Shown piece by piece: positions 8,519-33,061 of a stretch of 64,000 bases of DNA. The position numbers and the translations under genes are program-made. The notes beneath the pieces are model-generated. The model saw nothing but the letters and a program-made list of their open reading frames with translations. It did not search any database and had not been told where the DNA came from. Within the stretch, counting starts at the first letter, position 1. Each line of letters opens with the position of its first letter. Source of the DNA: Candidatus Sericytochromatia bacterium (GTDB lineage Bacteria; Cyanobacteriota; Sericytochromatia; S15B-MN24; JAQBPE01); the NCBI GenBank assembly GCA_040400605.1, contig JBBAPZ010000015.1:1-64000 (forward strand), read 5' to 3'.

Positions 8519-8638
8519 TTGAAAGGCAGCGTGATTCGTGCGTAGCAGCGGTGGCAATCGCAAGTGGTCAAGGCCTGCTGCGTCGCCAGCCAGTGTATTG
8601 CGGAAGCACAGGAGGGCCACTACGCCAAGAGACCGGGC

Positions 8639-8666: not shown

Positions 8667-8694
8667 GAGTAAGTCGGCGAAAGGAGACGTGCAC

Positions 8695-9382: not shown

Positions 9383-9529
9383 CCGCAAGCCCTCAACACC
9401 TCAGCCCCCCACAACCTGTGATGCGATCGCTATCGCACGGGTGCCGTGTCAGGTTATAACCACTAGTATGAACGCATTGACCCACATGGGCCCGTGGCCC
9501 AACCAGTCACGCTTTGGCGGGTGACGGCC

Positions 9530-10537: not shown

Positions 10538-10727
10538 CCCGTCCGCCCAGAACACATCGCCAACACCGTGCGATCGCCCCAAATGACCTTGTGAGCCTGC
10601 CAGCACCCTGCTACCATAATCCCGTCCAACGCTTGGCCAATGGTTTGGTTCACCGATCCGGCATCGTCAGCGTGGTTTAAAGAGTTCGATAACCAGCGTG
10701 TGCTGGTTTCTGCGGGGGAATGAGCAG

Positions 10728-11579: not shown

Positions 11580-11593
11580 GGGGGGATTCACGC

Positions 11594-12574
11594 ATGACCA
11601 CGAGTACCAAAACCCGTCCCTTGGGGCCTGCCACCCGTGACGCCTATGGCGAAGCCCTGGTGGAACTCGGGCGCCTGAACCCCGCGGTGGTGGTGTTGGA
11701 TGCCGACTTGTCCAAGTCAACCAAGAGCAATGGCTTTGCCAAGGCGTTTCCGGAGCGGTTTATGAACGTGGGCATCGCGGAGGCGAACATGGTGAGCATG
11801 GCGGCGGGTTTGGCCAGTTGCGGCCTGATTCCGTTTGCGAGTTCGTTCGCGTCGTTTTTGATGGCTAAATCGTTCGACCAGTTGCGGATGGGCGTAGCCA
11901 ACCCGCGGGTGAACGCCAAGTTTGTGGGTTCGCACGGCGGTATTTCGCTGGGTGAGGATGGCGCGTCGCAGCAGAGTGTGGAAGACCTGGCGTTGGCGGT
12001 GGCGTTGCCGCATATGGCTGTGTTGGTGCCGGCGGATGCCGTGGCGGCCAAGGCGTTGACCTTTGTGGCGGCGGCGCATGCGGGGCCTGTGTTTATGCGG
12101 ACGGGCCGACCCAAGGCGGCGCTTGTGCACGCGCCGGATGCGGTGTTTGCGGTGGGGGGGTCCCATACTTTGCGCACGGGGCGGGATTTGACGATTGTGG
12201 CCAACGGCTTGATGGTGCATGAGGCGTTGTGCGCGGCGGAGATGGCTGAGGACTTGGGTTTGAGCGTCGGTGTGATTGATGCGTACAGTGTGAAGCCCTT
12301 GGATGAGGCAAGCATCGTGAAGGCGGCGGCGGACAGTGGGGCGCTACTGGTTGTGGAAGAGCATTTGACAAGCGGTGCGTTGGGGGCTGCGGTGGCGCAG
12401 GTGTGTGCGAGGCTTCGGCCGGTACCGATGGCGTTTGTCGGGTTGCAGGATACCTATGCGGAAAGTGGGACGCCGGAGGCGTTGCTTGAGCATTTTGGCC
12501 TGAGCGCGCGTCATGTGTTGATGGCGCTGCAGGAGCTGCTTGTGCGCAAGCAGGCATTGATGGCTGGCGCGTGA
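11594..12574 (+). CDS. Transketolase, C-terminal subunit
   Basis: DADLSKST, NVGIAEANM, GEDGASQQ, VKPLD, VEEH motifs. Confidence 0.93.
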   Translation: MTTSTKTRPLGPATRDAYGEALVELGRLNPAVVVLDADLSKSTKSNGFAKAFPERFMNVGIAEANMVSMAAGLASCGLIPFASSFASFLMAKSFDQLRMGVANPRVNAKFVGSHGGISLGEDGASQQSVEDLALAVALPHMAVLVPADAVAAKALTFVAAAHAGPVFMRTGRPKAALVHAPDAVFAVGGSHTLRTGRDLTIVANGLMVHEALCAAEMAEDLGLSVGVIDAYSVKPLDEASIVKAAADSGALLVVEEHLTSGALGAAVAQVCARLRPVPMAFVGLQDTYAESGTPEALLEHFGLSARHVLMALQELLVRKQALMAGA

Positions 12575-14009: not shown

Positions 14010-16172
14010 GTGGCCAAAAACCTGGTAATTGTTGAATCTCCGGCCAAGGCCAAAACCATCGCGAAGATTTTGGGCAAGGATTTTCAGGTGAAGGCCTCGG
14101 CGGGCCACATTCGCGATTTGCCCAAAAAGGGTTTGGGCGTTGATATCAAGAAGAATTTCAGCCCCAAGTACGAGGTGTTGGCGGAGAAGTCCGAGGTGGT
14201 GCGGGATTTGCAGGATGCCGCCAATCGGGCGAAGGTAGTGTACCTGGCACCTGACCCGGATCGCGAGGGCGAGGCGATCGCCTGGCACTTGGCGGCTGTG
14301 TTGAGTGAGGTGGATGCGCAGCCCACGCTGAAGCGGATTGAATTTAACGAGATTACCAAGGATGCGATTCAGCGGGCGATCAAGAACCCGCGGGATATCG
14401 ATACGGGGCGCGTGGATGCGCAGCAGGCGCGGCGGGTGTTGGATCGGCTCGTTGGTTACAAGATTTCGCCGTTGCTGTGGCAAAAGGTGCGTCGTGGCTT
14501 GTCGGCCGGACGCGTGCAGTCGGTGACGGTGCGTTTGATTTGTGATCGCGAACGTGAGATTCAGGCGTTTGTGCCGCAAGAGTACTGGAGTGTGCATGCG
14601 GAGCTGCAAAAAGGGGGGCAATCCGCGTTTGTTGCGGAGTTGGCGAAATGGCAGGGCAAGAAGCCGGTTTTATCGAGTGAGGGCGTGACTGGCGCGATTG
14701 TGACGGCACTGAAGGCGGCAACGTATGTAGTTGGCAGCATCACGACGAAGGAGCAGAAGCGTCAGCCGGCGGCACCGTTTATCACGTCGTCGCTGCAGCA
14801 GGAGGCGTCGCGGCGGCATGGGTTTACGGTGAAGCGTACCATGGCTTTGGCGCAGCAATTGTATGAAGGCATTGAATTGGGTGCCGAGGGCCCGGTGGGT
14901 TTGATCACGTATATGCGAACGGATTCGATTCGCGTGGCGAAAGAGGCGCAGACGGAAGCGAAGGCTTATATCACAGAGCGCTGGGGCGAGGGTTATATCC
15001 CGAAGTCTGCGCGGGCGTTCAAATCGAAGAAGGGTGCGCAGGATGCGCACGAGGCGATACGGCCGACGTCAGTTGTGCGCACGCCGGAGTCGGTTAAAAA
15101 GAACCTGACGCCGGATCAGCTCAAATTGTATCGCTTGATCTGGGAGCGTTTTTTGGCGTCCCAGATGGAAAATGCGACCTTGTCGGTTGTGACGGTGGAA
15201 ATTGGGGCGGGGGATGGCATTTTCCGCGTGAGTGATACCAAAGTGGTGTTTCCGGGTTATCAGGTCTTGTATATCGAGTTGAGTGAGCGTGAGGGTGAAG
15301 AGGAAGCACAGGCGCCGAAGTTGCCGGAATTGGCACAAGGGGATGTGTTGAATTTGTTGGCTTTGACGCCGAAGCAGCACTTCACGCAGCCGCCGCCGCG
15401 TTATACGGAGGCGAGTTTGGTGAAGACCTTGGAAGAGCAGGGTATCGGGCGGCCGTCGACCTATGCGCCAACCATCGCGACCGTGCAGGACCGGGGTTAT
15501 GTGGAGAAAGATGGGCGGGCGCTGAAGCCGACCGAGTTGGGGGTGCAGGTAAACGAGCAACTGGTGACGCATTTCCCGAACATCGTGGATGTCGGCTTTA
15601 CGGCGGATATGGAAAACAAGCTCGATTCCGTGGAGGATGGGGCGGAGGCGTGGCAGCATCTGATCAAGAATTTTTACACGCCTTTTGCGGAGACCTTGAA
15701 GGTTGCGGCGAAGGAAATGAAGCCGGTGGCGATCCCCTCGGGCATCAATTGCGACTTGTGCGGCAAGGAGTATTGGATCAAGAGCGGCCGTTTCGGGGAA
15801 TTTTTGGCGTGTTCGGATTACCCGACATGCAAGGGCACGAAGCCTTTGATCAAGCGCATCGGGTTGAGTTGTCCGACGTGCACGACGGGGGATGTGATCA
15901 TCAAAAAGTCGCGGACAGGCAAGACCTTTTATGGGTGTGAGCGGTGGCCTGATTGCAGTTTTACGTCGTGGGACCAGCCAACGAACACGCCGTGTGTGAA
16001 GTGTCAGTCATTGACGGTCATCAAGCGTGCCAAAAATGGGCGTGAGTTCGTGTTATGTACGAATGCCGAATGCAAGGCCATCAGCAATGTGCCCAAGAAG
16101 AAGGCGGCTGCGGGCACGCCGGAAACGGGCGCACAGGAGGGCCCGGAAGGCGTGGAGGCGGCCACGCAATGA
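14010..16172 (+). CDS. topA: DNA topoisomerase I
   Basis: IVESPAKAKTI, DPDREGEAIAWH, SAGRVQS, ITYMRTDS, QDAHEAIRP, GIGRPSTY, C-terminal zinc ribbons. Confidence 0.98.
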   Translation: MAKNLVIVESPAKAKTIAKILGKDFQVKASAGHIRDLPKKGLGVDIKKNFSPKYEVLAEKSEVVRDLQDAANRAKVVYLAPDPDREGEAIAWHLAAVLSEVDAQPTLKRIEFNEITKDAIQRAIKNPRDIDTGRVDAQQARRVLDRLVGYKISPLLWQKVRRGLSAGRVQSVTVRLICDREREIQAFVPQEYWSVHAELQKGGQSAFVAELAKWQGKKPVLSSEGVTGAIVTALKAATYVVGSITTKEQKRQPAAPFITSSLQQEASRRHGFTVKRTMALAQQLYEGIELGAEGPVGLITYMRTDSIRVAKEAQTEAKAYITERWGEGYIPKSARAFKSKKGAQDAHEAIRPTSVVRTPESVKKNLTPDQLKLYRLIWERFLASQMENATLSVVTVEIGAGDGIFRVSDTKVVFPGYQVLYIELSEREGEEEAQAPKLPELAQGDVLNLLALTPKQHFTQPPPRYTEASLVKTLEEQGIGRPSTYAPTIATVQDRGYVEKDGRALKPTELGVQVNEQLVTHFPNIVDVGFTADMENKLDSVEDGAEAWQHLIKNFYTPFAETLKVAAKEMKPVAIPSGINCDLCGKEYWIKSGRFGEFLACSDYPTCKGTKPLIKRIGLSCPTCTTGDVIIKKSRTGKTFYGCERWPDCSFTSWDQPTNTPCVKCQSLTVIKRAKNGREFVLCTNAECKAISNVPKKKAAAGTPETGAQEGPEGVEAATQ

Positions 16173-16203
16173 GCATGGCGTGGCCAGTCAAGGAATGTGC
16201 AGG

Positions 16204-18021
16204 ATGGCGAGTGTGATGCAGTCTGAAGCCAAGCCGCGTTGGGATCTGACGCGTCTATACGCCGGTCCCGCCGATCCGTTTTTGGTGGGGGATCGCGAGC
16301 GGGCGCGGGAATTGGTGCGTAGCTTCGTGGAACGCTACCGCAACCAGGTCAGCACGTTGGACAGTGTGGCATTGTCACAGGCCCTGGATGAGATGGAAAC
16401 GCCTGTGGCCTTGCTGGATCGTCTGGCGGGATATACCTGGCTGCTGTTTTACACAGATACACGGGATGAGGCTGCGCGGGCCTTGTATCAAGACGTTTGG
16501 GCCGAGTACACGATGCTCAAGACCGAACTGGATCATTTTAAGACCGAGCTCAAATACCTGTCTATCGAGGCGATGACCCAACACCTTGAGGCACCGGTGC
16601 TTGAGCGCTATCGCTACTGGCTGACACGCATTTTTGACTCGGCGCCGTATGCGCGGCCCAGCAATGAAGAGCGAATTTTGGCCAATCGAACCATCACGGG
16701 AGTGAATGCGTGGTGTCAACTTTTGACGGAAAGTCTGGCACGCTTGCGCCTGACGGTGATGGTGGATGGGCAACCCCATACGGTGAGTGTGTCAGAAGCC
16801 CGGGGCTACCGGAGTGATTTGAACCGCGCCATCCGCGACGAGGCGCATCAACGGATCCTGGCGGCCTTCGCGGGTGAAAGTCACTTGCTGACTTACATTT
16901 TCAACACCTTGATGCAAGAGTATCTGGATGAACTCTCGATTCGCAACATGACGGATTTGTTGACGCCGCGGTTACTCGAATACGATCTCAGCCGGGCGGC
17001 GGTGGATTCGTTGTTGCAGACAACCCGCAAGCATTATGGCCTGAGTGGTCGTTATTATCGGAGCAAGGCCCGCTTGCTCGGCATCGCGGAATTTGGGGTG
17101 TGCGATTTGGTTGCGCCACCGTCGATTCACCATAGTCAGGTGTCGTTCAATACGGCACGGGTTTTGGTGCAAGAGTCGTTGCGGCAATTTTCACCCGAGT
17201 TTGCCGACATGGCGGAACGGTTTTTTGCGGAAGCGTACATTGATGCGTTTCCGGCGCCTGGCAAACCGTCGGGTTCGATCGCGTTTGGCTTGGGGCCAAC
17301 GGTACACCCTTATTTATTCCTGAACTATACATCGTCCGTGCGTGACGTGGTGTTGCTGGCGCACGAGTTGGGACACGGGTTGCACTTTTTGATGGCGGCC
17401 AGGAAGCAGGGCGTGCTGAACGCCTACAGCACGTCACCCATGTTGGAAACGGTGTCCATTTTTACAGAGATGCTGACGGCGGAGCATTTGTTGACGTTGG
17501 AGCCTGATCCCCACGTGCGCATCCATGTGTTGGCTGCCCAGATTGAAAATGCGTTGCTCAATGTGATGCGCCAGACGATGTACACCGAATGGGAGCTTGC
17601 CGTTTACACCAAGCGTCAGGCGGGTTTTGTGAGTGCGGCGGAGCTCAACGGTTGTTGGCTTGATGCACACAAGGCGCTGTATGGTGATTCGGTTCAGGTA
17701 ACGGAGGCTGACGGTTGGGGTTGGCTGAACAATCCTTATTTTTTCACCACCCGCTTCGGCAATTTCAGTTATGCGTTTGGCCAATTGTTGGTTTTGAGTC
17801 TGTTCACGCAATTTAAGCGGCAGGGCAAGGATTTTGTGAATCGCTTCATGGATATGCTGGAGCAGGGGGGATCGGAATCCCCTGCGCACTTGCTGGCGCG
17901 CATCGGCATTGATATCGAGAACCCGCAGTGTTGGGAAAAAGGCTTCGTTGTGTTGGAAGAGCTCATCGAAGAATTTGAGCGCGCCGTGGATGAATTGACG
18001 CCCGAGGCGGGGTCTACCTGA
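16204..18021 (+). CDS. pepF: M3B oligoendopeptidase F-like peptidase
   Basis: WDLTRLY N-terminus, IDAFPAPGK, LAHELGHGLH (HExxH), FSYAFG. Start uncertain. Confidence 0.85.
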   Translation: MASVMQSEAKPRWDLTRLYAGPADPFLVGDRERARELVRSFVERYRNQVSTLDSVALSQALDEMETPVALLDRLAGYTWLLFYTDTRDEAARALYQDVWAEYTMLKTELDHFKTELKYLSIEAMTQHLEAPVLERYRYWLTRIFDSAPYARPSNEERILANRTITGVNAWCQLLTESLARLRLTVMVDGQPHTVSVSEARGYRSDLNRAIRDEAHQRILAAFAGESHLLTYIFNTLMQEYLDELSIRNMTDLLTPRLLEYDLSRAAVDSLLQTTRKHYGLSGRYYRSKARLLGIAEFGVCDLVAPPSIHHSQVSFNTARVLVQESLRQFSPEFADMAERFFAEAYIDAFPAPGKPSGSIAFGLGPTVHPYLFLNYTSSVRDVVLLAHELGHGLHFLMAARKQGVLNAYSTSPMLETVSIFTEMLTAEHLLTLEPDPHVRIHVLAAQIENALLNVMRQTMYTEWELAVYTKRQAGFVSAAELNGCWLDAHKALYGDSVQVTEADGWGWLNNPYFFTTRFGNFSYAFGQLLVLSLFTQFKRQGKDFVNRFMDMLEQGGSESPAHLLARIGIDIENPQCWEKGFVVLEELIEEFERAVDELTPEAGST

Positions 18022-18087
18022 CACCAACGGACGTCACGCGACCGGGCGATCGCTTCCGGGTTCGCCAAACCACCCACGCACACCGCA

Positions 18088-18888
18088 TCACCGCTTGCTG
18101 TTTTCGCCGGCCACTTGCAAAAAGCGGTGCATGTCTTTCATGTTTTGCTCGGCATACTGGTGGGTCATGCTCATCAAATTGGGTAACAACAAAAGCAACA
18201 AAATGAGTCCGGATACCGGCTTGGCGATGGTCACCAGGTCCTGGGTCAAGCTGCTCGCTTGCTGCGCCACTTTGCTCATGTAACCGACCCCCAATTCCGC
18301 CACAAACACAACGGTCACCATTGGCAAGGCCAGTTGAATCGTGATGGCTAAAAACGCACCGCTTGCCAGGATGACCTGCGCACCCACGGCAGGAGAGAGC
18401 ACAAAGCTACCGATGGGTACCAACGCGAAAGACTGGACGAAGCCGCCAATCAACCACAGATGCCCGCCAAACACCATAAAAATCAAAATGGCAATATTGA
18501 AATAAAACGTGCCCATCGCATTCACGTTCGTTTTGGTAAACGGGTTTTGCACGCTGGCTGAGGACAAACCGGCTTGGACACCGCCCAGTTCGCCCGCGGA
18601 TTGAATGGCCAGGAACATGATGTTTGCGGAATACCCAAGGATGAAGCCCAACGCCAATTCGGTCATCGCGACGATCACAAAACCAAGCAGTTGCTGCGGC
18701 AGTGCAGCCGTTGCCGGCATCTGCGTCATCGCAACCAGGCTGATGCCGGCAATGAGGCTCATCCGCACGGGCGCTGGTAAGTTACGATTGCTCAGTACCG
18801 GTGCCTGCATAAACAAACCAATGGCACGGGAGACAACCATGATGAAGGTAGGCACAGTCAGGGCCAGATACGCGACCAAGGCCTCCAT
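18088..18888 (-). CDS. fliR: Divergent FliR paralog (second export gate)
   Basis: Hydrophobic FliR pattern (P.LS.R..P..VR, ELALGFILG, AGELGG.Q.GL, GGHLWLI...SF..VP); TGATG coupling to the fliQ paralog. Confidence 0.85.
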   Translation of the reverse strand: MEALVAYLALTVPTFIMVVSRAIGLFMQAPVLSNRNLPAPVRMSLIAGISLVAMTQMPATAALPQQLLGFVIVAMTELALGFILGYSANIMFLAIQSAGELGGVQAGLSSASVQNPFTKTNVNAMGTFYFNIAILIFMVFGGHLWLIGGFVQSFALVPIGSFVLSPAVGAQVILASGAFLAITIQLALPMVTVVFVAELGVGYMSKVAQQASSLTQDLVTIAKPVSGLILLLLLLPNLMSMTHQYAEQNMKDMHRFLQVAGENSKR

Positions 18889-19157
18889 CACGGCACCATG
18901 GCAGGTATCTGCCCAAACAGGCGTGTGACGTAGCCTACGACCGTGTTCAACATCCACGGTGCCACGAGCACGAGCACGAGCAAAACGGCGATCGCCTTGG
19001 GCACGAACGACAAGGTCTGTTCCTGAATCGAGGTGATCGTCTGCAACAGCGCGACAATAAAACCGACCACCAAACCTGTCAATAACATCGGTGCTGACAA
19101 AAGCAGCACCAGGATGATTCCCTGGGTCAGGACAGTCAAGACAAATCCGGTGGTCAA
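18888..19157 (-). CDS. fliQ: FliQ paralog
   Basis: LLQTITSIQEQTLSFVPK motif, 89 aa. Confidence 0.92.
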   Translation of the reverse strand: MTTGFVLTVLTQGIILVLLLSAPMLLTGLVVGFIVALLQTITSIQEQTLSFVPKAIAVLLVLVLVAPWMLNTVVGYVTRLFGQIPAMVP

Positions 19158-19172
19158 GGCCGCCCCCTCAGG

Positions 19173-19955
19173 TCATCGATAACTGCGCACCAACGCTTCA
19201 ATCAGCAAGTGCCACCCATTGGCCAAGGAAAAAATCAGCACCTTGAACGGTGGCGCCAACGATTGGGTCTGCAGTTGTTGCATGCCAAGGGCCATGATGA
19301 CGTTGGTGATGACGAGGTCCACGACAATAAAGGGCAAGTAGACGATGAAGCCGATTTTAAAACCCGTCGCGACCTCGCTGATCATGAAAGCGGGCACCAC
19401 CACGTGCATCGGGACATCTTCCGGCTTGCGTGGATCCGGCAACTTCGCCAACCGCAAAAAAAACGCCAGTTCCTGCTGGTTCGTTTGCTTGATCATGAAA
19501 TTCTTGAGCGGCACTTGGGCCTTCTCGTACGCCATTTCCTGCGTCATCTTGTTGTTCAAAAAAGGCACAATGGCATCCCGGTTGACCGCATCCCAGGTAG
19601 GCGCCATGACGTACATGCTCAAAAACAAGGCCATGCCGATGATCACCTGACCAGGGGGAACGTTTTGCAAACCCGTCGCCTGTTTCAGAAAAGCCAACAC
19701 CACTACAATACGAATAAATGGCGTGGTGGCAATGAAAAGGAAAGGCAGCAAAGTCAGGGCTGCGACCAGAAAAATTAATTGCAACGGCGTGGACAAACCA
19801 GGCGATTGCAGAGGCGCTCGGAGATCAAAGCTGCTCATCACCGTGGCGGCGTCCGCGGCACGCGTGGCGCACCAAGCTTCAGAAGGCCACAAACACACCG
19901 TCAGGAGTGCCAGGGCAAACAAGCCGACGCTCAAAACCCGGTTATGCTTCGTCAC
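19173..19955 (-). CDS. fliP: Divergent FliP paralog with MQQ in place of the MMM gate
   Basis: FIRIVVVLAFLKQATG.QNVPP.QV, PAFMISE, FKIGF.VYLPFIVVDLV, PFK...NGW. Confidence 0.9.
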   Translation of the reverse strand: MTKHNRVLSVGLFALALLTVCLWPSEAWCATRAADAATVMSSFDLRAPLQSPGLSTPLQLIFLVAALTLLPFLFIATTPFIRIVVVLAFLKQATGLQNVPPGQVIIGMALFLSMYVMAPTWDAVNRDAIVPFLNNKMTQEMAYEKAQVPLKNFMIKQTNQQELAFFLRLAKLPDPRKPEDVPMHVVVPAFMISEVATGFKIGFIVYLPFIVVDLVITNVIMALGMQQLQTQSLAPPFKVLIFSLANGWHLLIEALVRSYR

Positions 19956-20343
19956 TGACGTCCTGCTCCTTGACCAGATGCTCAGAAAACGTGCCCAAGA
20001 CGTCTTCGGGCTGCAACTCCGCCACCGGCGTCAGGCGATCGCCCGCACTCGCCAACAGCCAATAACGCCCCCCGACACGAACCACCATCAAGGCACGGGT
20101 GGCATCCAGCGCGTGACGATCCACCACCTGAATAACCGGACGCTCCCGGCCCCGCAACAGCAAACCGGGAATGCGCTCACGCCAATAACGCGCACCAAAA
20201 AACCCCAACACCGCAACCACCGCCGTCACCACAACCAGTTGCAGCAAATACGGCCAGATACTGACATCAATGGGGGCCGGCCCCAGTGGCATCATCGACG
20301 GCCAAGGTGTCGGCGTGGCCCAGGCAATCAACTCAGGCGCCAC
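19942..20343 (-). CDS. fliO: FliO-like protein (paralog)
   Basis: One TM helix followed by the beta-rich IQVVDRHAL...LMVVRVGGRYWLL; sits between fliN and fliP; AAGGAG SD before GTG at 20343. Confidence 0.7.
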   Translation of the reverse strand: MAPELIAWATPTPWPSMMPLGPAPIDVSIWPYLLQLVVVTAVVAVLGFFGARYWRERIPGLLLRGRERPVIQVVDRHALDATRALMVVRVGGRYWLLASAGDRLTPVAELQPEDVLGTFSEHLVKEQDVSDEA

Positions 20344-20662
20344 CCGTCGCTCCTTGCAGGGCACTGTTGAAAATCTGTGTGATCTTGACCCCAAAGGAAG
20401 AACCAATCACCACGACTTCGCCTTGGGCGACAATCTGTCCCGCGACACTGAGGTTGACCGGCTCACCGGCGAGTTGTTCCAGTTCAATGATCGACCCCTC
20501 ACCCAATTGGATGACCTGCCGCAACGGAATCGACGTCCGCCCCAGCTCAACCATGACTTCCAACTTAAGCTCACGCAGAATCTCAAGATTCGGCTCATGC
20601 GACACCGCGCCACCCGAAAGCGGCGCAAAACGCACCTGGGATACCACCTGACGCTGAGTCAA
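20333..20662 (-). CDS. fliN: FliN-like SpoA-domain protein (paralog)
   Basis: VELGRT, LGEGSIIEL, LAGEPV, GEVVVI..FGVKIT; AGGAGG SD before TTG. Confidence 0.9.
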   Translation of the reverse strand: MTQRQVVSQVRFAPLSGGAVSHEPNLEILRELKLEVMVELGRTSIPLRQVIQLGEGSIIELEQLAGEPVNLSVAGQIVAQGEVVVIGSSFGVKITQIFNSALQGATGGA

Positions 20663-20705
20663 CGCTCAAACCTCCTGATTCCTGAAAATCCCCAACGATG
20701 CACCA

Positions 20706-22145
20706 CTAACCCGGATTGACCCTGAGCAGCTTCTCAACACCCGGTTTCAACGATATCATCTTCACAGCTTTGTTGCCGTTAATGGTCAAGGGACGACCAC
20801 GGCCAGCCAACCGACCGTTAATGGATACCCCAATCGTGCCATCCGGCGATTTGGGCAATTCCAAAATTACCCCTTCCGCCAGGGTCAACCAATCCGCGGC
20901 GCTCAATTCCAGGCGTCCGAGATCCGCCACAATCTGCACATAGACATTGCTGAGCGGCCCCATCGCAGACGGCGCATCATCGTCCGCGGCCACCGCCTCA
21001 CGTGCCGAAATGACATTCGCCGTCTCAGGCTCCGTACCACCACCCGGACGATTCACCAAGGGCATTTCATAGCGCTCAACCGTCCAATCAGGCAAACGCA
21101 ATAACGACTGACATTCCAGCTCAAACTGCTTCAAGATGCGCTGCGTTTCAGCCTCCACGCGCACGGGATCAAAGCCATGCAAGGGCGCGGGCTCAATGGC
21201 CGGTATCTGCACCTCGATGGGCCGCGTGAACTCCGCCGCCTTGGGGTCAGACACACGCGCCGTAAAATCAACCCGACCAAGAATCAATCCAAATGCCCCG
21301 GACAACATGCACGCCGAGGAAAACGCATACGAAAACGCCACATTGGGATGACTCGCCGCCCCAAAGGTGTAAATCCAGTGCAAAATCACCGCAGGCGTCG
21401 CCACCGACACACTCGGAAACAGCGTCCGCAACAAGACAATCAAGGCTGCACCAAAGAAAAACCCCATCGCGCCGCCATAATAAAACCCGACAGCCCCCCG
21501 TACCAACCGGGCTGACAACCCCACGCCCACGTGCTCATCGCGCGGATCCGGCACCTCAGGCCGCAAAAACCCCAACACCAAACCCAAAAAACCAAACGGA
21601 ATCGCGTATCCCAACGCCCCCCAAAGCGCCCCATACATAAACGGCGGGTTCACCAACCAGCGCTGACGCTTGATATCCAACGGCTTGCGCGGCGGCACCT
21701 GCACAGGCGTCAACAAACCCGGAGACAAAGCCGTACCAACGACCTTCGCCATCGTCGAAATCACTCGCCCGCGCTCAATCGCAGGCCCCGGCGACAAACT
21801 CAAACCCAAACCGTGCGCGTGCGCCAACATATTGTAAGCACCCACACCCAACAAGCTAACCATCGTCAACACCAATAAAAACCCGCGCAACAAGCCGGCT
21901 GGTTGCGTCAAAGGCGGACTCAAGACGATGCTGCGCGGCTTGTAACGCCGGTAATACGTGAAATAATTGAGCGCCACCAGTAAGCTGACCGCATGCGCCA
22001 ACGTGTATCCCACCAGAAACGGATGCAAACCCGTGCCACTCGACGTCCAGAAGCGCACCAACATGAACAGCGGAAAAATTCCACCAACCAAAAACAGAAT
22101 CGTCCAAAAAAAGGAAACCTGCTGCGCAGGCGCGCGCGCAATCAC
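20706..22145 (-). CDS. Polytopic membrane protein with a C-terminal FliM/FliN (SpoA) domain
   Basis: About 6-7 hydrophobic segments in the first ~290 aa; last ~75 aa (VQIVADLGRLEL...L.EGVILEL...INGRLAGRG...AVKMI) follow the SpoA pattern. Confidence 0.7.
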   Translation of the reverse strand: MIARAPAQQVSFFWTILFLVGGIFPLFMLVRFWTSSGTGLHPFLVGYTLAHAVSLLVALNYFTYYRRYKPRSIVLSPPLTQPAGLLRGFLLVLTMVSLLGVGAYNMLAHAHGLGLSLSPGPAIERGRVISTMAKVVGTALSPGLLTPVQVPPRKPLDIKRQRWLVNPPFMYGALWGALGYAIPFGFLGLVLGFLRPEVPDPRDEHVGVGLSARLVRGAVGFYYGGAMGFFFGAALIVLLRTLFPSVSVATPAVILHWIYTFGAASHPNVAFSYAFSSACMLSGAFGLILGRVDFTARVSDPKAAEFTRPIEVQIPAIEPAPLHGFDPVRVEAETQRILKQFELECQSLLRLPDWTVERYEMPLVNRPGGGTEPETANVISAREAVAADDDAPSAMGPLSNVYVQIVADLGRLELSAADWLTLAEGVILELPKSPDGTIGVSINGRLAGRGRPLTINGNKAVKMISLKPGVEKLLRVNPG

Positions 22146-23053
22146 GATGACACCTGCGCAATCTCAACCGCCAACCGACGACCATCCGGCGTGGTACCCG
22201 GCTTGCCCGCCATACGCGATTGCCCCACAATCACCTCCAGGGTGCCGCCAACCAAGGTATCCAACTCAATCACATCGCCCGCTTCCAATCCGTGCAAGTC
22301 ACTAACCGTTAACTCGACACGCCCCAAACACACCGTCACCGGCACAGGCACATCCTGGATAAAATCCAGGCGTTCGTGAAAATACGTGGTATCCGAACCC
22401 GTCAAGGTGGTCTCGCCGATCGCCTGCAAACTCGCACCCGCACTCAACAAATATGCCTGCGGAATCGCCAGCACCACCCGCGCCGTCTCCGTCTGCCCAG
22501 GCTGCGACACCCGAAACGCCGTCGTCACCACTGGCGTATTCGGATTCAGACCCGGAAACATCTGTTGCAACTCAGTCAAAGTCGGCGGAACCTGCGCCGG
22601 TATCATCTGGACATCAAACTGCGCGATTTCATGCCAACACACCATAAACTGATGCCCCAAGTGCATCAACCACTGCTCAACAAACGCAAAACCGTCATCC
22701 GTCGCCAACGCCTCAACATTCACCCCGGTCAAAATGCTCGCCGCCGCGCTGTCGACAAACACAAAACCACCCCCAGGCTGCTCCGCAAAATCCAAAATTC
22801 CCCACACCGCATCGCGCGCATAACGCGTCTCCAACGCCTGAAACGGAACAATCTCAACCGCGGTCACCTGCCATGCGGTCTGCGGAAAACTCACATACTC
22901 ATCCTGCAACTGGGCCATCTGCGCACACAAGTTGAAGTGAATATAGTAAATGGCGCGCATTTCCAGATTGTAATGATTGACACCAGCCGTCAGGACCGCC
23001 TCGTCCTCGGCGCTGACCCCATAAGACCCTTCCGAGTGTTGATAACCCTGCAC
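22142..23053 (-). CDS. FliM-like protein (FliM middle-domain-like plus SpoA) lacking the N-terminal CheY-binding motif
   Basis: C-terminal VPVPVTVCLGRVELTVSDL..LEAGDVIEL...GKPG...LAVEI; AGGAGG SD before GTG at 23053. Confidence 0.7.
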   Translation of the reverse strand: MQGYQHSEGSYGVSAEDEAVLTAGVNHYNLEMRAIYYIHFNLCAQMAQLQDEYVSFPQTAWQVTAVEIVPFQALETRYARDAVWGILDFAEQPGGGFVFVDSAAASILTGVNVEALATDDGFAFVEQWLMHLGHQFMVCWHEIAQFDVQMIPAQVPPTLTELQQMFPGLNPNTPVVTTAFRVSQPGQTETARVVLAIPQAYLLSAGASLQAIGETTLTGSDTTYFHERLDFIQDVPVPVTVCLGRVELTVSDLHGLEAGDVIELDTLVGGTLEVIVGQSRMAGKPGTTPDGRRLAVEIAQVSS

Positions 23054-23499
23054 GCACGTGCCTCCTACGGAAGCGTTCCCTCCCGTCTTCAAATGATACC
23101 AAAAAGCGCCACAGTCGCCCATTCAACCTAGCTCACGGACGGACCACAAACCGATTGATACTCGGCTGTGGACCGTGATGCGGCAGCGCCCGGCGCAAAC
23201 AGTGCTGCACAGGTTAAGAGCCAAAACCTGCACGGCAAATGCAAAACCAAGCTTTGGGAGCCTGCCGTTCTTCAAATGCCAGTCAAAATACCACTCACCG
23301 TTCAATGCCTGTTCGCCCCTTGAAACGCCCTGGTGACACGCCGGTGGTTTGAAAGTGGTCGACACATCCAATCACCTGACCGATGGGTGTTTGTTTTGCC
23401 TGTCACAGATGCTTGTTCGGTTAGGGGTTATGCTGCATGGGTATGATCGCGCTTGGTTCAGGCGACGGGCCTGATGCGGCGTCATAGGGGGCGAATGTC

Positions 23500-23919
23500 A
23501 TGAATGCGATTTCGCAAGGGCGTTACGGCCTGATGGGACTGATTCCAGAGGTACCAACATCGCTGCGTAGCGGCACGCTGGATGCCAATCGTCCCGAGGA
23601 GGAATTCATCAAGTTGATGGTGGCCCAACTGCAGAATCAAGACCCCGAAAAACCCATGGACGGCACCGCCCTCATATCGCAAGTCACGCAGATGAATGCG
23701 GCGATCGCCGTGCAGCGCATGAGCTACCTGACCACCGAAAACCACGCCGTTTCAACCGCCGCCGCCCTCCTGGGCAAACAGGTGCTGATTCGCCAGCCAG
23801 ATAACGGGGCCACGCTCACCGGTCGTGTTCAAACCGTTGACTACTCCGGCAAAAACCCCCTCATTGTGGTCGATGGCCAGTCTTTCCCGCTTAACGCCGT
23901 GTTGCGCGTAGACGTGTAG
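23500..23919 (+). CDS. flgD: FlgD-like hook cap paralog
   Basis: EEFIKLMVAQLQNQDPEKPMD motif, LLGKQV, short Tudor-like C-terminus. Confidence 0.85.
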   Translation: MNAISQGRYGLMGLIPEVPTSLRSGTLDANRPEEEFIKLMVAQLQNQDPEKPMDGTALISQVTQMNAAIAVQRMSYLTTENHAVSTAAALLGKQVLIRQPDNGATLTGRVQTVDYSGKNPLIVVDGQSFPLNAVLRVDV

Positions 23920-23930
23920 GAGGGCAAGTC

Positions 23931-24947
23931 ATGTCGCAAGTTCAAAATGGCGTCTTCAATACGTTAAGCGCCATGGACCAATGGATGCGGGTCATTGGCT
24001 CCAATGTCACCGGTTCGACCGTCACCGGCTATCGCGGAACCGATGTGCAATTCGGGGATGTGTTGGCGTCCCACCTCTCCCTCGGCGCACGTCCAAGCGA
24101 TGGCTACGGATCCGTCAATCCCGTCCAACGCTCCGATTCAGGCGTCCGCATCAAAGCGACCACAACCGATTTTACCCAAGGCTCCATCACAGCCAACGGC
24201 CAACCCACGAACCTTGCCATCAACGGCGACGGTTTCTTCGTTCTGTCACGCACACCCAACCCGCGGTCAATCAGCGACCTTAGCTTCACCCGCGACGGCA
24301 CCTTCAAATTCGAATTTCTCCGTGGCGACCTACCCAATACCGGCACCTACCGCCTTGTCAACTCAGACGGGCTGTTCGTCATGGGTTACTCCTCCACCGT
24401 CGATGCCAACCGACCCTTCGGCACACCACCGGAAGAAGCGCAAGGCACAGACAACCAGGCTTTTGCCAACGTCGTGGGCAGCGGCGCCGGGCAACCCCCC
24501 ATCCCCGCTTTGTTCCAGAACATTCAACTGGATCTGGTGCGCAATCCGGAAGCAGCCGGCCGCTTCACGTTTGATGCCCAAGGCCTCGTGCGCGTCGGTG
24601 GCGCCGAACCCCGCGATGTCCTCGGACGCCCCGTCAACATGCACGTTGCATTGGCCAAATTTGCCAACCCGGAAGGCTTGAGACGCGGCAGCAGCGGCGC
24701 CTCGTTTCAGTATGACGTGATTGCCGGACAAGTGTTTTCAGGCACGGCCGCTGCGGGCAATGACGGCAGAAACCGGGTGGTCGGCGCAACCAACGTGCTT
24801 ACCCCGGGTGCCCTGGAGAATTCCAACACGTCCATCAACACGACGTTGCCCGAAATCACGCTCGCGCAGAAGTCCTTCTCGTCGGCGAGCAAACTGCTCA
24901 CCGTCGCCAACGACCTCATCGAGAAGGTGGAACAGATCATCAAATAA
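23931..24947 (+). CDS. Divergent FlgE/FlgG-like axial (hook/rod) protein
   Basis: DFTQGSI, LAINGDGFF, FTRDGTF, LVNSDG..VMG, FANPEGL, GALENSN; N- and C-terminal D0 motifs are degenerate. Confidence 0.85.
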   Translation: MSQVQNGVFNTLSAMDQWMRVIGSNVTGSTVTGYRGTDVQFGDVLASHLSLGARPSDGYGSVNPVQRSDSGVRIKATTTDFTQGSITANGQPTNLAINGDGFFVLSRTPNPRSISDLSFTRDGTFKFEFLRGDLPNTGTYRLVNSDGLFVMGYSSTVDANRPFGTPPEEAQGTDNQAFANVVGSGAGQPPIPALFQNIQLDLVRNPEAAGRFTFDAQGLVRVGGAEPRDVLGRPVNMHVALAKFANPEGLRRGSSGASFQYDVIAGQVFSGTAAAGNDGRNRVVGATNVLTPGALENSNTSINTTLPEITLAQKSFSSASKLLTVANDLIEKVEQIIK

Positions 24948-25351
24948 ATGACCTCGCCTGACCGCGATACCGTGACGCACAGGTTTTTGGTCAAAACGGC
25001 ATGACAAACTCCAAACATCGGGCACTGCTTCGTCGTTTTTGAGCAACAGCCACAATTCGATCACCAATCTAACGCGTCTCGATCTATCGCGTGGGCCAGC
25101 ACCCCGAACTCCAATCCATCAAATTGACTGATTCTTCGTTCAATGTTCGTTGTAACCACACTGCCCAGAACACCCGAAACCGGTCCGCTTGCCGTTACCG
25201 CTTGGGCTGATGGTTGGCGCCTGATCGGTGAAGTTGATGAATCCTCCTGAACTCCCGAAACTTGACAGGCTCAGTCCTTCCGTGCTCATCTAAAATTTCA
25301 GACGTTTGTTATCAGCGATCGCACACTGGTGCGTGAGGCACTGCGCGTTCC

Positions 25352-27445
25352 ATGGCGACACAATCTACCCCGTCAGCACCTTCGAGTCTCGGAGCCTTTT
25401 TGCGGTCCGGTGACCTTGTGTTGGCTGTCATCGTGGTTATGGTCGTCGGCATGATGGTGGTACCGCTTCCACCGTTGCTGCTTGACCTGCTGCTCGTCTT
25501 GAACATCACGGCCGGTCTGCTCATGCTGCTGGTGTGTCTGTATGTCCAACGGCCGCTGGAATTTAGCACGTTTCCGTCACTACTGTTGATTCTGACGCTG
25601 TTTCGCTTGGCGTTGAACGTCTCGACCACCCGGTTGATTCTGTTGAATGGTGAAGCGGGGCATGTGATCGAGGCCTTTGGGCAATTTGTGGTAGGCGGCA
25701 ATTACGCTGTCGGTGTGGTTGTTTTCACGATTTTGGTCGTGATTCAGTTTATCGTCATCACGAACGGTGCCGGTCGCATTTCGGAAGTGGCAGCGCGCTT
25801 TACGTTGGATGCCATGCCAGGCAAACAGATGGCGATTGACGCGGACCTCGGTTCGGGCAATATCACAGAAGAGGTCGCTCGCAAGCGGCGACTCGACATC
25901 CAGCGCGAGAGCGACTTCTATGGCACGATGGATGGTGCGTCGAAGTTTGTTCGCGGGGATGCGATCGCAGGCATTATCATCATCGTCGTCAACGTCATCG
26001 GCGGGCTGGCCATCGGGGTGCTCCAACGCGGCATGCCAATTGGCGAAGCAGCCAGCCGCTACACCCTGCTCACCGTCGGGGACGGTCTTGTCTCGCAGGT
26101 GCCGGCGCTGGTTATCTCGGTGGGCACGGGTATACTCGTTTCCAAGGCCGCCACCCAGCAATCCCTGGGCCAGGAAATCGGTGCCCAGCTTTTGGGCGAT
26201 CCCCGCGTGTTAATGGTCGTATCGGTGATGCTGGGCATTTTGGGCCTCGTGCCCGGCCTGCCCAAATTGCCGTTCATCACCCTTGCCTTATGCAGTGGGG
26301 TTGCCGCCTACGTGGCCAATCAACAGGCCCAAAAAACGGTGGCACTCGAAGCGGCTGCTGCGGTGGATGCCCCGAGTGATGCAAACGAAGCCAAAGGCCC
26401 TGAAAACGTGATGGGTTTGCTCAACGTCGACCCGATGGAGCTTGAAATCGGGTATCGGTTAATCCCCTTGGTCGATGCGTCGCAAGGGGGCGACTTGTTG
26501 GATCGCATCACCATGATTCGTCGCCAAACCGCCACCAAGCTGGGGGTAGTTTTGCCGCCCATTCGCGTGCGGGACAACCTGCAACTCAAACCCAAAGAGT
26601 ACCGCATCAACCTGCGCGCCATCGAGGTCGCACGGGGCGAAGTGCAGGTTGAACAATTTTTGGCCATGAATGCCGGCGGGGCGGTCGCACCCATCGACGG
26701 CATCCCGACGAAGGAACCGGTCTTTCAGATGCCAGCGTTTTGGATCGACGAATCCAAAAAGGAAGACGCCGAGATTTTGGGCTACACCGTGTTCGACCCG
26801 TCGTCGGTGCTCGCCACGCATCTGACCGAAATCGTCAAGTTACATGCGCCGGATATCTTGTCCCGGCAAGACGTGCAGGCGTTGATCAACCACGTCAAAA
26901 CAGATTATCCGGCAGTCGTCGAAGAATTGTTGCCCGACTTGATGACCTTGGGTGACATTCAACGGGTCTTGCAAAACCTGTTGCGTGAGCGCATCAGCAT
27001 CCGCGACATGGTGCCCATTTTAGAAGCCCTCGCCAATTACGCGCGTCTGACCAAAGATACCGATACCCTCACGGAATATGCCAGACAAGCCTTGGCACGC
27101 AGCATCACGCGCCAGAACATGAGCGCGGAAGGCCGCTTGCCCGTACTGACCATGGACCCAGGGCTTGAGCAAATTCTGGCCAATTCCGTCCAGCAAACCG
27201 ATCAAGGTGCGATGGTAACCCTCGAACCAGGCGTTGCGCAACGCTTGGTCAAAAGCGTTCAGGTTCAGGTAGAACGATTGCTCACCAATGGTCACCAGCC
27301 GGTGGTGCTATGTTCCAGCAAAGTGCGGCTGGTGTTTCGTCGCCTGATTGAGCGAAAGTTTCCGGCGGTGTCCGTGATGGCCTATAACGAGATTGTTCCC
27401 CCGCAGACCGAAGTGCAATCGATGGGTGTAATCAGCCTGGCGTAA
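25352..27445 (+). CDS. flhA: Flagellar export ATPase-coupled gate protein FlhA
   Basis: LFRLALNVSTTRLIL, EVAARFTLDAMPGKQMAIDADL, FYGTMDGASKFVRGDA motifs. Confidence 0.97.
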   Translation: MATQSTPSAPSSLGAFLRSGDLVLAVIVVMVVGMMVVPLPPLLLDLLLVLNITAGLLMLLVCLYVQRPLEFSTFPSLLLILTLFRLALNVSTTRLILLNGEAGHVIEAFGQFVVGGNYAVGVVVFTILVVIQFIVITNGAGRISEVAARFTLDAMPGKQMAIDADLGSGNITEEVARKRRLDIQRESDFYGTMDGASKFVRGDAIAGIIIIVVNVIGGLAIGVLQRGMPIGEAASRYTLLTVGDGLVSQVPALVISVGTGILVSKAATQQSLGQEIGAQLLGDPRVLMVVSVMLGILGLVPGLPKLPFITLALCSGVAAYVANQQAQKTVALEAAAAVDAPSDANEAKGPENVMGLLNVDPMELEIGYRLIPLVDASQGGDLLDRITMIRRQTATKLGVVLPPIRVRDNLQLKPKEYRINLRAIEVARGEVQVEQFLAMNAGGAVAPIDGIPTKEPVFQMPAFWIDESKKEDAEILGYTVFDPSSVLATHLTEIVKLHAPDILSRQDVQALINHVKTDYPAVVEELLPDLMTLGDIQRVLQNLLRERISIRDMVPILEALANYARLTKDTDTLTEYARQALARSITRQNMSAEGRLPVLTMDPGLEQILANSVQQTDQGAMVTLEPGVAQRLVKSVQVQVERLLTNGHQPVVLCSSKVRLVFRRLIERKFPAVSVMAYNEIVPPQTEVQSMGVISLA

Positions 27446-27454
27446 GCGCTGGCG

Positions 27455-28480
27455 TTATCCGAACCAGCCGCCGAACATCGGGAAGTCGTGGGATTCTTTC
27501 AAGAGGGTGAGCAAGCGTGGGAAGCCGTGGCGATCCACATACCCCTTGACCTTGCGAAAACCAGCACCATAGGCGGGGTCAGGGTCTTTCATCAAGGCAT
27601 CGATGTGATAACGCCCCTCTTCGTTATCGCGCGCCAGGTACATCCGGTAACTCATGTAATTGCAAGCCCCTTCCTCGAGTGCAAAGGCATGGGGGCGCGC
27701 ATGATAATAATTCCAGGCGTGCATCAGTTCATGCGCGGCAGTCGCCTCGAGTACGGCGAGTGGCATGCCACCAAGCAAATACATGGTGCCTTGTTTGTTT
27801 TGACGGGTGGTGCCCTGCTGTTCGAAGACCATTTGCCACAGACCGCTCACCCATTTGGAGGGCTGGTGGGCGGAGCGGCGCAACAGTTGGTTCAATTGAT
27901 TGCGGTCCACCACCTTGAGCGGAATGTCAACGCGTCCGAGATCCACGCCCCACTGCCCAAACCGCGCCCGCACCTCCATCAACAAACGCCGCACATCCGC
28001 TTCTCTGTGCACCGCCGTGCGATGACAGCCCCGACAAATCACGCGACCATCCGGATAGTTAAGACCACCCCCACCGATGCTGGCATGCGTGAGGCGGGCA
28101 CAATACTGGCACGTGCCGAATTCCCGCGCGTGGGCCGCGTGGTAGGTGTTGCCCCAATAATCCGTCAACGCCGGGCCAACGATGCCCTTGGCGCAGACCA
28201 CACACTGAAGGGCTGCGGTCTGCTCATAACAGCGCGGATGATGCGCGCGGCCTTCGTGGATTACCGCCTGCCCGGTGATCGCCTGCGCACAGACCGGACA
28301 CCGCGGCGCGTGATGCTCGGCATAACAGGCCGGATGCAAAAATCGCCCAGCATGCACCTGATAACTGCCCTGAATCGGTAACTGACAGGCGTGACACAAA
28401 AAATGACCCGGATGGAAACAAAGCCGCCCGGCTTGAATGTAACGCCCCTCAATCACCGCTTTGCAATGCGCGCAGCGCAT
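27455..28480 (-). CDS. LIM zinc-finger / DA1-like zinc metallopeptidase
   Basis: Repeated CxxC...HxxH/C zinc-finger units in the N-half; AHELMH...EEG.CN...Y..GF DA1-type peptidase motif in the C-half. Confidence 0.8.
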   Translation of the reverse strand: MRCAHCKAVIEGRYIQAGRLCFHPGHFLCHACQLPIQGSYQVHAGRFLHPACYAEHHAPRCPVCAQAITGQAVIHEGRAHHPRCYEQTAALQCVVCAKGIVGPALTDYWGNTYHAAHAREFGTCQYCARLTHASIGGGGLNYPDGRVICRGCHRTAVHREADVRRLLMEVRARFGQWGVDLGRVDIPLKVVDRNQLNQLLRRSAHQPSKWVSGLWQMVFEQQGTTRQNKQGTMYLLGGMPLAVLEATAAHELMHAWNYYHARPHAFALEEGACNYMSYRMYLARDNEEGRYHIDALMKDPDPAYGAGFRKVKGYVDRHGFPRLLTLLKESHDFPMFGGWFG

Positions 28481-28486
28481 AATGGC

Positions 28487-30523: not shown

Positions 30524-30865
30524 TGAGGGCCCTCCGCCGTGATGCTGACAATGACGGGATCACGCTTCCGCGTCGATGCTGCGTAAATTCGACCAGCGCT
30601 TCAACCGACGATGCTTGCGCGGTTTCGGCTGGAACCAGTTCAACCAGAACCAGCCACGATCCCGTGTCAAAGACGCCAACTCTTTCATCCGATTGGCATT
30701 TGCTTGAAATAACTGCAGAAATTGTTGCTCGGACATTATCGAATCCATTTCGCAAAAAATATTAAAAGTTAAATCGTGCCTCATTGCCCGTTCTTTAAAA
30801 AATAGCACATTCAGGGTCATCTGACACGTGATCAACGTCTTGTTTGCGACGCGCAAGGTTGGTTT

Positions 30866-31954: not shown

Positions 31955-31957
31955 GCG

Positions 31958-32773: not shown

Positions 32774-32779
32774 CGCAAT

Positions 32780-33049: not shown

Positions 33050-33061
33050 GCGGCGCGACTC

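Follow-up and report, generated by a model that had tools for sequence, protein, structure and literature searches.

A module of divergent flagellar genes lies at positions 18088-24947 of the window, as we call the whole 64,000-nucleotide stretch analysed here (positions 1 to 64,000 of contig JBBAPZ010000015.1, C15 below), which comes from a metagenome-assembled genome (MAG) of a Candidatus Sericytochromatia bacterium. We find that this module encodes the switch complex, export gate and hook of a second type III apparatus of the flagellum type, which we term S2, and that it is one locus of a dispersed system rather than an orphan or isolated export gate. Comparisons across the class Sericytochromatia show that S2 is no artefact: it is a basal body and export apparatus of flagellar type, present class-wide and under selection, whose cytoplasmic ring has been remodelled, and it is distinct from the canonical flagellar system encoded beside it (S1). 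Judging from its gene complement, we give a probability of about 0.5 to the reading that S2 is a remodelled, non-rotary flagellum-derived export machine or short appendage and not a swimming motor.

Gene content of the module

A preliminary description of this DNA had reported an intact, tightly coupled run of fliM-like, TM-SpoA (transmembrane-SpoA), fliN, fliO, fliP, fliQ and fliR genes with divergent flgD- and flgE-like genes. Open reading frames (ORFs), Pfam and NCBIfam bear this out: all nine genes are intact, and the seven genes on the minus strand, from fliM' to fliR' (primes mark the copies in the module), overlap or lie no more than 43 bases apart.

The export-gate gene fliR' (18088-18957, minus strand; 289 amino acid residues) matches the Pfam family Bac_export_1 with 146.6 bits and has orthologs in 10/10 related S2 loci. 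Its product is 26% identical to the canonical FliR and scores 123.8 bits with the NCBIfam fliR model (cut-off 168.6) versus 99.7 bits with SctT, both scores being below the cut-offs. The 89-residue product of fliQ' (18888-19157, minus strand) matches Bac_export_3 with 89.6 bits and passes the NCBIfam cut-off for fliQ (97.3 bits, cut-off 88.9; SctS 62.8). FliP' (19173-19955, minus strand; 260 residues) matches Pfam FliP with 217.8 bits and the NCBIfam fliP equivalog with 223.9 bits (cut-off 217.45), versus 173.0 bits for SctR (cut-off 208.6). Next to it, fliO' (19942-20406, minus strand; Pfam FliO, 32.2 bits) is called at 154 residues with one membrane helix; the hydrophobic segment spans residues 46-75, and the true start may be further downstream than called. 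Several other families have FliO' fused to FliP'.

The switch-complex part begins with fliN' (20333-20662, minus strand), which encodes a SpoA-domain protein of 109 residues (Pfam FliMN_C, 78.1 bits) that passes the NCBIfam fliN cut-off (84.9 versus 84.05 bits) and shares 45% identity with the C-terminal end of canonical FliY. TM-SpoA (20706-22145, minus strand; 479 residues) has six predicted membrane helices that a linker joins to a SpoA domain at the C-terminus, its sole family match being FliMN_C at residues 398-464. The product of fliM' (22142-23122, minus strand; 326 residues as called), with a FliM middle domain followed by SpoA, is recognised by hhalign against the canonical FliM and shows weak matches to solved FliM middle domains.

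Two genes on the plus strand complete the module. The hook-cap homolog FlgD' (23500-23919; 139 residues; Pfam FlgD, 47.8 bits) is 33% identical to the canonical FlgD, and its gene lies upstream of flgE' in eight S2 loci of families f1, f2 and f4. FlgE' (23931-24947; 338 residues) is a short axial protein of the rod/hook family, with a Pfam Flg_bbr_C match of 24.7 bits, a weak D1 match and an NCBIfam FlgEFG subfamily score of 84.1 bits (cut-off 70.25); Pfam finds no FlgE_D2 domain in it. Its AlphaFold 2 (AF2) model best resembles FlgE D1 and rod/hook chains (E 3.6e-6 to 6.3e-6) and, at a predicted local distance difference test (pLDDT) of 54, is a low-confidence model that may be taken to support rod/hook-family membership only. 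Two small ORFs were also considered: neither 23123-23371 nor 23482-23745 belongs to a family. Related loci contain no homolog of the first, the second runs antisense to flgD', and both are probably not genes.

The module was also said to contain host HIP1 sites, and we count three inside it, at 18988, 20035 and 23701. In the whole window the HIP1 motif (GCGATCGC) occurs 33 times, versus 2.5 expected.

S2 genes on other contigs

The genome (3.71 Mb, 94.6% complete, 4.9% contamination) was surveyed for paralogs by tblastn with all flagellar proteins of the window, followed by Pfam scans of the matches. Its two FliP genes both lie in the window, and second copies of other flagellar genes sit on five other contigs (C2, C3, C5, C9 and C17). 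The largest group, on C2, comprises a flagellin/FlgL-like gene, FlhA2, FliF2, FliE2, FlgC2, FlgB2, a FliA/WhiG-like sigma factor, a rod-binding protein, FlgI, FlgH, FlgA, FlgG2, FlgF2 and a FliK-like gene (FliK2). FlhA2 scores 765 bits and is 43% identical to the FlhA of the window. A solitary FlhB2 on C5 keeps the NPTH cleavage site at residue 270; C3 carries MotA2/B2, which match flagellar stator models best but below their cut-offs; and C9 carries FliH2 together with FliI2, the latter 57% identical to FliI1. FliH2 is 517 residues long as called, its counterpart in a relative (G007) aligns from residue 90 on, and the first ~90 residues of the call look non-coding. An additional flgE'-like gene is found on C17.

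The MS (membrane-supramembrane) ring, rod, P and L rings, hook cap, hook, hook-length control and FlhB switch are thus all encoded in S2. FlgH, FlgI and FlgA are single-copy in the genome and belong to the S2 cluster on C2, no L/P-ring genes being present among the canonical genes of the window and of C5. The contigs that bear S2 genes match the window in guanine-plus-cytosine (GC) content (~0.56) and HIP1 density (0.44-0.55 per kb). For filaments, the genome has nine Flagellin_N genes, two FliD loci and only one FlgK; these genes, and the stator pair MotA2/B2 likewise, are ascribed to neither S1 nor S2.

These results settle two proposals of the preliminary description. It had supposed that the module either borrows FlhA, FlhB and FliHIJ or has partner genes elsewhere; with FlhA2, FlhB2, FliF2, FliH2/I2 and others on further contigs, the second alternative stands and the first falls. 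Its statement that stator, FliF, FlhB and ATPase genes are missing is correct for the module in the window but not for the genome. It had named a full, ordinary second set elsewhere as a refutation of its view, and this applies in part: a near-complete second set does exist, but it is not an ordinary one, having no torque-generating FliG, a FliM' without the CheY-binding N-terminus, and TM-SpoA.

Some further genes came to light in the same survey. Four proteins of 367-596 residues are limited to the C-terminal, cytoplasmic portion of FlhA (FHIPEP ~320-655) and lack its membrane domain, all in non-flagellar surroundings: G000:C7:52789-53706 (L018:6643-7746), C1:238557-239639 (L019:5895-7685), C1:143967-144614 (L020:5557-6906) and C3:167416-167973 (L021:6865-8304). 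Two BNR/Ycf48-like beta-propellers of 524 and 552 residues are encoded near S2 genes (L011:1741-3315 on G000:C2 and L015:7092-8750 on G000:C17), one adjoining the FliK-like gene and the other the extra flgE'-like gene, and are possibly S2-associated or exported proteins. Flagellins also occur on the short contigs G000:C62 (5770 bases), C104 and C117, which have no HIP1 sites and a GC content of 0.50-0.53, below the 0.56 of the genome; C62 holds three tandem flagellins and a FliD that matches in two pieces. These three contigs may come from another locus for filament genes, from a repeat that collapsed in assembly or from contamination.

Remodelled parts of S2

What sets S2 apart lies around the MS ring and cytoplasmic ring (C-ring). 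FliG_C has exactly one match in each of the eight genomes of the window's family, and that match is the canonical gene in the two genomes checked (G000 and G007). When the FliG2 proteins of other families were used as tblastn queries, they retrieved nothing beyond canonical FliG and the FliF2 tail. Absence of FliG_C, here and below, means absence from Pfam matches at E <= 0.001 and from tblastn searches in MAGs that are 64-100% complete.

FliF2 (614 residues) has a Pfam FliG_M match at residues 542-592. Its end, after the second membrane helix, is a conserved armadillo (ARM)-like domain of ~85 residues that aligns to FliG ~116-217. Proteins with this FliF::FliG_M arrangement were found only in the lineage of S2 (nine proteins, in a word-limited search). 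S2 accordingly appears to have no dedicated FliG torque domain and to carry a FliG_M-like domain fused to FliF2 instead. Modelled as a complex, residues 525-614 of FliF2 (its tail) and 45-250 of FliM' (its middle domain) scored 0.29, the mark being 0.32, which speaks neither for nor against an interaction.

The N-terminal peptide of FliM binds CheY-P and its GGXG motif binds FliG. With a probability of 98.1% and an E-value of 6.6e-14 in hhalign, FliM' aligns to residues 48-326 of the canonical FliM, and by this measure FliM' appears to be a true FliM homolog that is devoid of the CheY-binding N-terminus: the N-terminal motif of S1 FliM is absent from 11/11 FliM' sequences. The canonical MLGGPGK, in the GGXG region, aligns to residues that are not conserved in FliM'.

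For TM-SpoA, AF2 places helices at residues 12-36, 42-68, 83-110, 174-194, 210-242 and 267-289, with most 10-residue blocks at pLDDT 80-94, and a class-wide alignment of 11 sequences has invariant residues in the membrane and SpoA parts alike. Foldseek finds no match of the membrane domain in the PDB at E <= 0.001, only the SpoA part resembling FliN/SpoA chains, and a wide VIA-align search returned generic helical bundles with a best Z of 4.7. The modelled membrane part is therefore assigned to no recognised fold, which leaves fold novelty unproven.

Second FliG genes do exist in other families, where they are not encoded with S2 genes. One genus of f7 has a solitary copy. In families f2 and f4, a 687-residue protein joins a 370-residue N-terminus of no family to FliG N, M and C domains and is followed by an FlgO-like gene and a MotA/MotB pair (L034, G011:C29:203000-218000, at 5992-11462; also L035); one genome has a second stator pair as well, and this extended FliG is absent from the window's family.

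A family that keeps S2 alone

Family f6 (six genomes, 74-98% complete, one of them, G033, in three contigs) shows S2 apart from S1. One S2-type FliP is present in four of the six genomes and none in the other two, and S1 FliP is absent. No FliG_C is matched by Pfam in any of the six; in all five genomes searched, the sole FliG-like match is the FliF2 tail, covering FliG ~116-208. Flagellin_N is likewise missing from 6/6 genomes, and FliD does not exceed its cut-off in any of the four searched. The family retains FliF2 (5/6), one type III secretion system (T3SS) ATPase (6/6), full-length FlhB (4/4 searched) and 6-10 genes of the rod/hook family. In G033 the set comprises FlgF2/G2, FlgA/H/I, the sigma factor, FlgB2/C2, FliE2, FliF2, FlhA2 and the fliM'...fliR' operon, besides five flgE'-like paralogs at scattered sites. 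Since f6 keeps S2 without FliG_C, flagellin or, where searched, FliD, S2 can persist for long without rotor, filament or cap.

Phyletic distribution

All genomes compared are MAGs, and absences rest on hidden Markov model (HMM) and BLAST thresholds. Close homologs of FliP' that carry a name come mostly from Candidatus Sericytochromatia MAGs. Two FliP genes are present in 39/47 genomes of the class, two T3SS ATPases in 37 of the 41 outside family f6, and two FliF proteins in most, one of them being the long type of 600-670 residues. Gene order in the operon is kept in 10 loci from five families: flgD'-flgE'-fliM'-TM-SpoA-fliN'-fliO'-fliP'Q'R' in f1, f2 and f4, and the operon without adjacent flgD'E' in f6 and f7. 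The order flgB2-flgC2-fliE2-fliF2-flhA2 is likewise kept in f2, f6 and f7. In other families the module and the canonical operon are located on different contigs.

A profile built from 11 TM-SpoA orthologs finds the protein at full length in 43 of the 47 class genomes and in pieces in two. Among the matches listed in 354 other genomes of the phylum, none covers the membrane part; only the SpoA part is matched, with 55.9 bits at best. Run against 5.8 billion proteins, the profile recovers 43 proteins, all at 305 bits or above, and those that are named come from Sericytochromatia or 'cyanobacterial' MAGs; the first 300 residues find only eight clusters among 1.84 billion representatives. TM-SpoA thus appears to be the signature gene of S2, restricted to Sericytochromatia. 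What has been counted as 'flagellar genes' in the non-photosynthetic relatives of cyanobacteria belongs to two different machines. The titles and abstracts found on Sericytochromatia flagella, flagellum-derived T3SS and dual flagella (subscription journals not covered) contain no description of a second Sericytochromatia system.

The sister family f9, with genomes of ~2 Mb, has a compact cluster of its own in 170/170 sampled genomes (L070, G112:C1:1407000-1426999, at 7885-11612; also L068). It encodes a soluble FliM-like/SpoA protein of 397 residues, fliO, a short fliP (213 residues), a long fliQ (162 residues) and fliR, and its FliP forms a separate, very deep branch. Canonical fliPQR-flhB-flhA genes are present as well in ~39 of the 170 genomes. 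The f9 cluster may be another remodelled flagellar-type system, a case related to S2.

Phylogeny and selective constraint

In NCBIfam comparisons FliP', FliQ', FliR' and FliN' each score higher with the flagellar than with the Sct model, SctQ too remaining below the flagellar score. FliP phylogeny was examined in two IQ-TREE trees of 44 and 48 rows, a small sampling with a midpoint root (support values are given for the two trees in turn). On a long branch, four SctR sequences make up a clade of their own (100/100 and 100/99). S2 FliP sequences are monophyletic (99/96 and 98/97) and fall outside the clade of other flagellar FliP, canonical copies included (88/82 and 91/95), grouping with flagellar FliP across the long SctR branch. 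The S1 copies sit among sequences of Thermomicrobium, Armatimonadetes and Miltoncostaea type. On these trees FliP' appears flagellar-type, in a deep clade of its own, and not injectisome-type. S2 FliP is also apart from two alphaproteobacterial plasmid FliP and from E. coli FliP, in trees that hold no verified lateral-flagellum reference (Vibrio, Aeromonas, Flag-2). The subgroups of S2 FliP track the families, which fits vertical inheritance of S2 throughout the class Sericytochromatia.

An injectisome identity of the module is ruled out by its NCBIfam scores, SctR staying at 173.0 bits under its cut-off of 208.6, together with the position of FliP' outside the SctR clade in both trees. Pfam scans of the S2 loci, which did not extend to a genome-wide search for secretin or needle genes, turned up none of SctC, SctF, SctD and SctK.

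Between the window genome and its relative G007 of the same family, synonymous divergence (dS) is saturated, which makes the ratio of nonsynonymous to synonymous divergence (dN/dS) unusable, so a congeneric pair of another family was taken. There, dN/dS is 0.12-0.48 for seven S2 genes at dS of 0.14-0.34. These values, and frames that are intact across the class, rule out relaxed selection on S2. Within the window's family dN is 0.21-0.46 for S2 proteins versus 0.17-0.19 for S1, and S2 thus seems to be constrained yet to evolve somewhat faster than S1.

Canonical genes and other neighbours of the module

The complete canonical set that the preliminary description placed beside the module is present in the window: flhB (30866-31954), fliRQP (31958-33823), fliO, fliY, fliM (36954-37955), fliL, motBA, fliK, flgE (42278-43801), flgD (44318-44806) and fliJ, with flagellins, and after fliJ also flaG, fliS, fliT, flgBC and fliEFG. 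Canonical fliH and fliI lie just beyond the window end. One gene had gone unmentioned, a full-length flhA at 25352-27445 (plus strand; 922.6 bits) directly downstream of flgE'. By its synteny this gene belongs to S1: in a relative of the same family, flhB, a LIM/DA1 gene, flhA, flgD', flgE' and fliM'...fliR' follow one another on one strand throughout, an arrangement from which a local inversion sets the window apart.

A 17,970-base contig of a ~95%-identical strain, assembled from the run of another study, covers window positions 16071-33000 in the same gene order. This independent contig, the synteny in the relative and the shared GC content and HIP1 density rule out a chimeric assembly or contamination. 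In the related strain (run X4), 1009 extra bases lie between the M3 peptidase gene and fliR' (window 18021-18029), and a 177-base stretch is replaced upstream of flhA (window 24946-25246). Contigs of source-like runs end at 24946-25059, with two alleles.

Several other genes of the surroundings deserve mention. Between canonical flhB and flhA, the minus-strand gene at 27455-28480 encodes the LIM/DA1 protein, 341 residues with a LIM zinc finger and a DA1-like peptidase domain, a eukaryote-like domain pair that is unusual for a flagellar operon; its ortholog in the relative is 57% identical and has the same position. A 342-residue ORF of no family (34799-35827, minus strand) lies between canonical fliY and fliO, overlaps the called fliO start and has a 32%-identical paralog at C2:225363-226238. 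Farther along the canonical operon, a 116-residue protein (40509-40859, minus strand) consists of the C-terminal domain of FlhB only, without the NPTH site; FlhB_C-only genes resembling it adjoin flgF2 in other families. The same operon has two FliK-like genes, of 472 and 902 residues (40810-42228 and 44886-47594, both minus strand). At 8515-9382 (plus strand), an HTH_37 gene comes after a Gp49-like (HigB-type) gene, and the two resemble a toxin-antitoxin pair.

Function of S2

No torque-generating FliG_C, no chemotaxis input and the survival of S2 alone in f6 make a non-rotating exporter or short appendage the most likely form of the system. In such a machine FliF2 would form the MS ring, its fused FliG_M-like domain replacing a separate FliG, and the gate would consist of FliO'P'Q'R' with FlhA2 and the NPTH-bearing FlhB2, export being energised by FliH2 and FliI2. 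FliM', with neither CheY-binding peptide nor GGXG, would make up a remodelled cytoplasmic platform together with FliN' and the membrane-anchored TM-SpoA. The rod may be built from FlgB2/C2, FliE2 and FlgF2/G2, the P and L rings from FlgI and FlgH, and FlgD', FlgE' and FliK2 may give a short hook-like distal structure. The non-rotary secretion appendage proposed in the preliminary description survives in this form, through the missing and altered parts and the f6 pattern, but not as an isolated gate. More tentatively, S2 could be an ancient independent exaptation to a non-rotating envelope-spanning exporter or hook-like appendage that kept the rod and L/P rings in place of a recruited secretin, FliF::FliG_M plus TM-SpoA having replaced the FliG rotor and TM-SpoA tethering a static FliM'/FliN' sorting platform.

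Several observations weigh against a non-rotary S2. The genome has a canonical FliG, which S2 might share, and a very divergent torque domain could have escaped the FliG_C search; MotA2/B2 form a second stator pair, and one MotB persists in 6/6 f6 genomes. There are nine Flagellin_N genes and two FliD loci, a flagellin/FlgL-like gene stands beside flhA2, and FliK2 and the NPTH site of FlhB2 suggest a switch to late, filament-type substrates. S2 may once have been rotary, given the second FliG of one f7 genus and of f2 and f4 (there beside FlgO-like and MotAB genes), and a membrane anchor alone is compatible with rotation because FliF is itself membrane-embedded. The main alternative is that S2 is a second rotary flagellum with scattered genes, as in dual polar and lateral systems, which uses the canonical FliG (elsewhere FliG2), MotA2/B2 and some of the flagellins, and whose odd C-ring parts are a lineage-specific decoration. 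The near-completeness of the second set, from rod, L/P ring, hook cap, hook and FliK to the NPTH-type FlhB, FliA-like sigma factor and stator pair, speaks for such a flagellum. We nevertheless consider it rather unlikely, since none of the eight genomes of the window's family has a second FliG, the FliG2 genes of other families lie apart from S2 genes, the FliG_M-like domain of FliF2 occupies the usual docking place of a free FliG, FliM' has neither of the two motifs, and f6 keeps S2 without FliG_C or flagellin (6/6) or FliD (4/4 searched).

That S2 is instead a partly redundant helper set for the canonical flagellum, supplying for example the sole genes for L/P rings, FlgA and distal rod in a diderm cell, or else a slowly decaying relic, appears improbable to us. 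The single-copy FlgH, FlgI and FlgA in the S2 cluster and the want of L/P-ring genes among canonical genes (window and C5) would suit a helper, as the faster divergence of S2 would suit a relic. Against this, frames are intact class-wide under the dN/dS values given above, a helper set would not need an MS ring, gate, ATPase and hook of its own, and f6 has lost the canonical system and keeps S2 including its L/P rings. Proximity is what recommends the view that the module is a swap-in cassette of export gate and C-ring for the canonical basal body, borrowing FlhA, FlhB and FliHIJ: it lies 6 kb from the canonical operon and, in the window's family, directly downstream of canonical flhA. Dedicated FlhA2, FlhB2, FliF2 and FliH2/I2 co-occur with the module across the class, however, other families have the module and the canonical operon on separate contigs, and f6 has the module without any canonical set, so that we regard a cassette as very improbable.

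Comparison with known systems

Dual flagella are known from the lateral systems of Vibrio and Aeromonas and from Flag-2 of E. coli. Bradyrhizobium likewise has dual flagella, a subpolar and a lateral set (PMC6406911). The Sericytochromatia genome resembles dual-flagella genomes in having two sets, each with its own FliPQR, FlhA, FlhB, FliF, FliI, rod and hook, the second being vertically conserved within its clade. In known dual systems the entire motor is present twice, with FliG and a complete FliM in each. S2 has no FliG in the window's family; its FliF is fused to FliG_M, its FliM lacks the CheY-binding peptide, and one of its SpoA proteins is anchored in the membrane. The S2 genes are spread over at least six loci and include the only L/P-ring genes of the genome.

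Flagella reduced to export are the nearest parallel to the f6 pattern. In Lysobacter enzymogenes OH11 a flagellin-less flagellar T3SS exports proteins, as shown by fliI and flhB mutants (PMC7688988), and Buchnera aphidicola has kept basal bodies without a flagellin gene (PMC8109811). In f6, too, genes for basal body and export apparatus are retained without flagellin. The Lysobacter and Buchnera cases each concern the one canonical system of a non-motile lineage, degraded in recent times, whereas S2 is an old and distinct paralogous lineage that stands beside a canonical flagellum in most of the class and has new parts, TM-SpoA and FliF::FliG_M. Joining an MS-ring protein covalently to FliG sequence has a precedent in the FliF-FliG fusion proteins of Vibrio, which are engineered laboratory constructs with full-length FliG (PMC10941966). 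FliF2 differs from these in carrying one ARM-like FliG_M-type domain of ~85 residues and no FliG_C. Whether or not S2 rotates, it offers for structural study a natural FliF::FliG_M fusion and a new SpoA partner.

Textbooks give the flagellum-to-injectisome step as the example of how a motor became a secretion machine, but few intermediates are known. Should S2 not rotate, it would be an independent and differently solved motor-to-secretion transition, parallel to the injectisome; should it rotate, it would be a motor of unprecedented rotor architecture with no free FliG. Injectisomes and the Myxococcales-type intermediate lost motility parts, and secretins were gained later (Abby and Rocha 2012, PMC3459982). 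Read as non-rotary, S2 would be similar to the injectisome in its flagellar origin, its loss of motility elements and the conversion of its cytoplasmic ring into a static platform, and similar to the Myxococcales systems in having no secretin of its own in the locus. It differs from the injectisome in retaining the flagellar rod, L/P rings, FlgD/FlgE, FliK and FliO, and would be an independent exaptation and not an injectisome member. S2 thus resembles both export-only flagella and the injectisome in possible function, and it is a member of neither, being a separate flagellar lineage.

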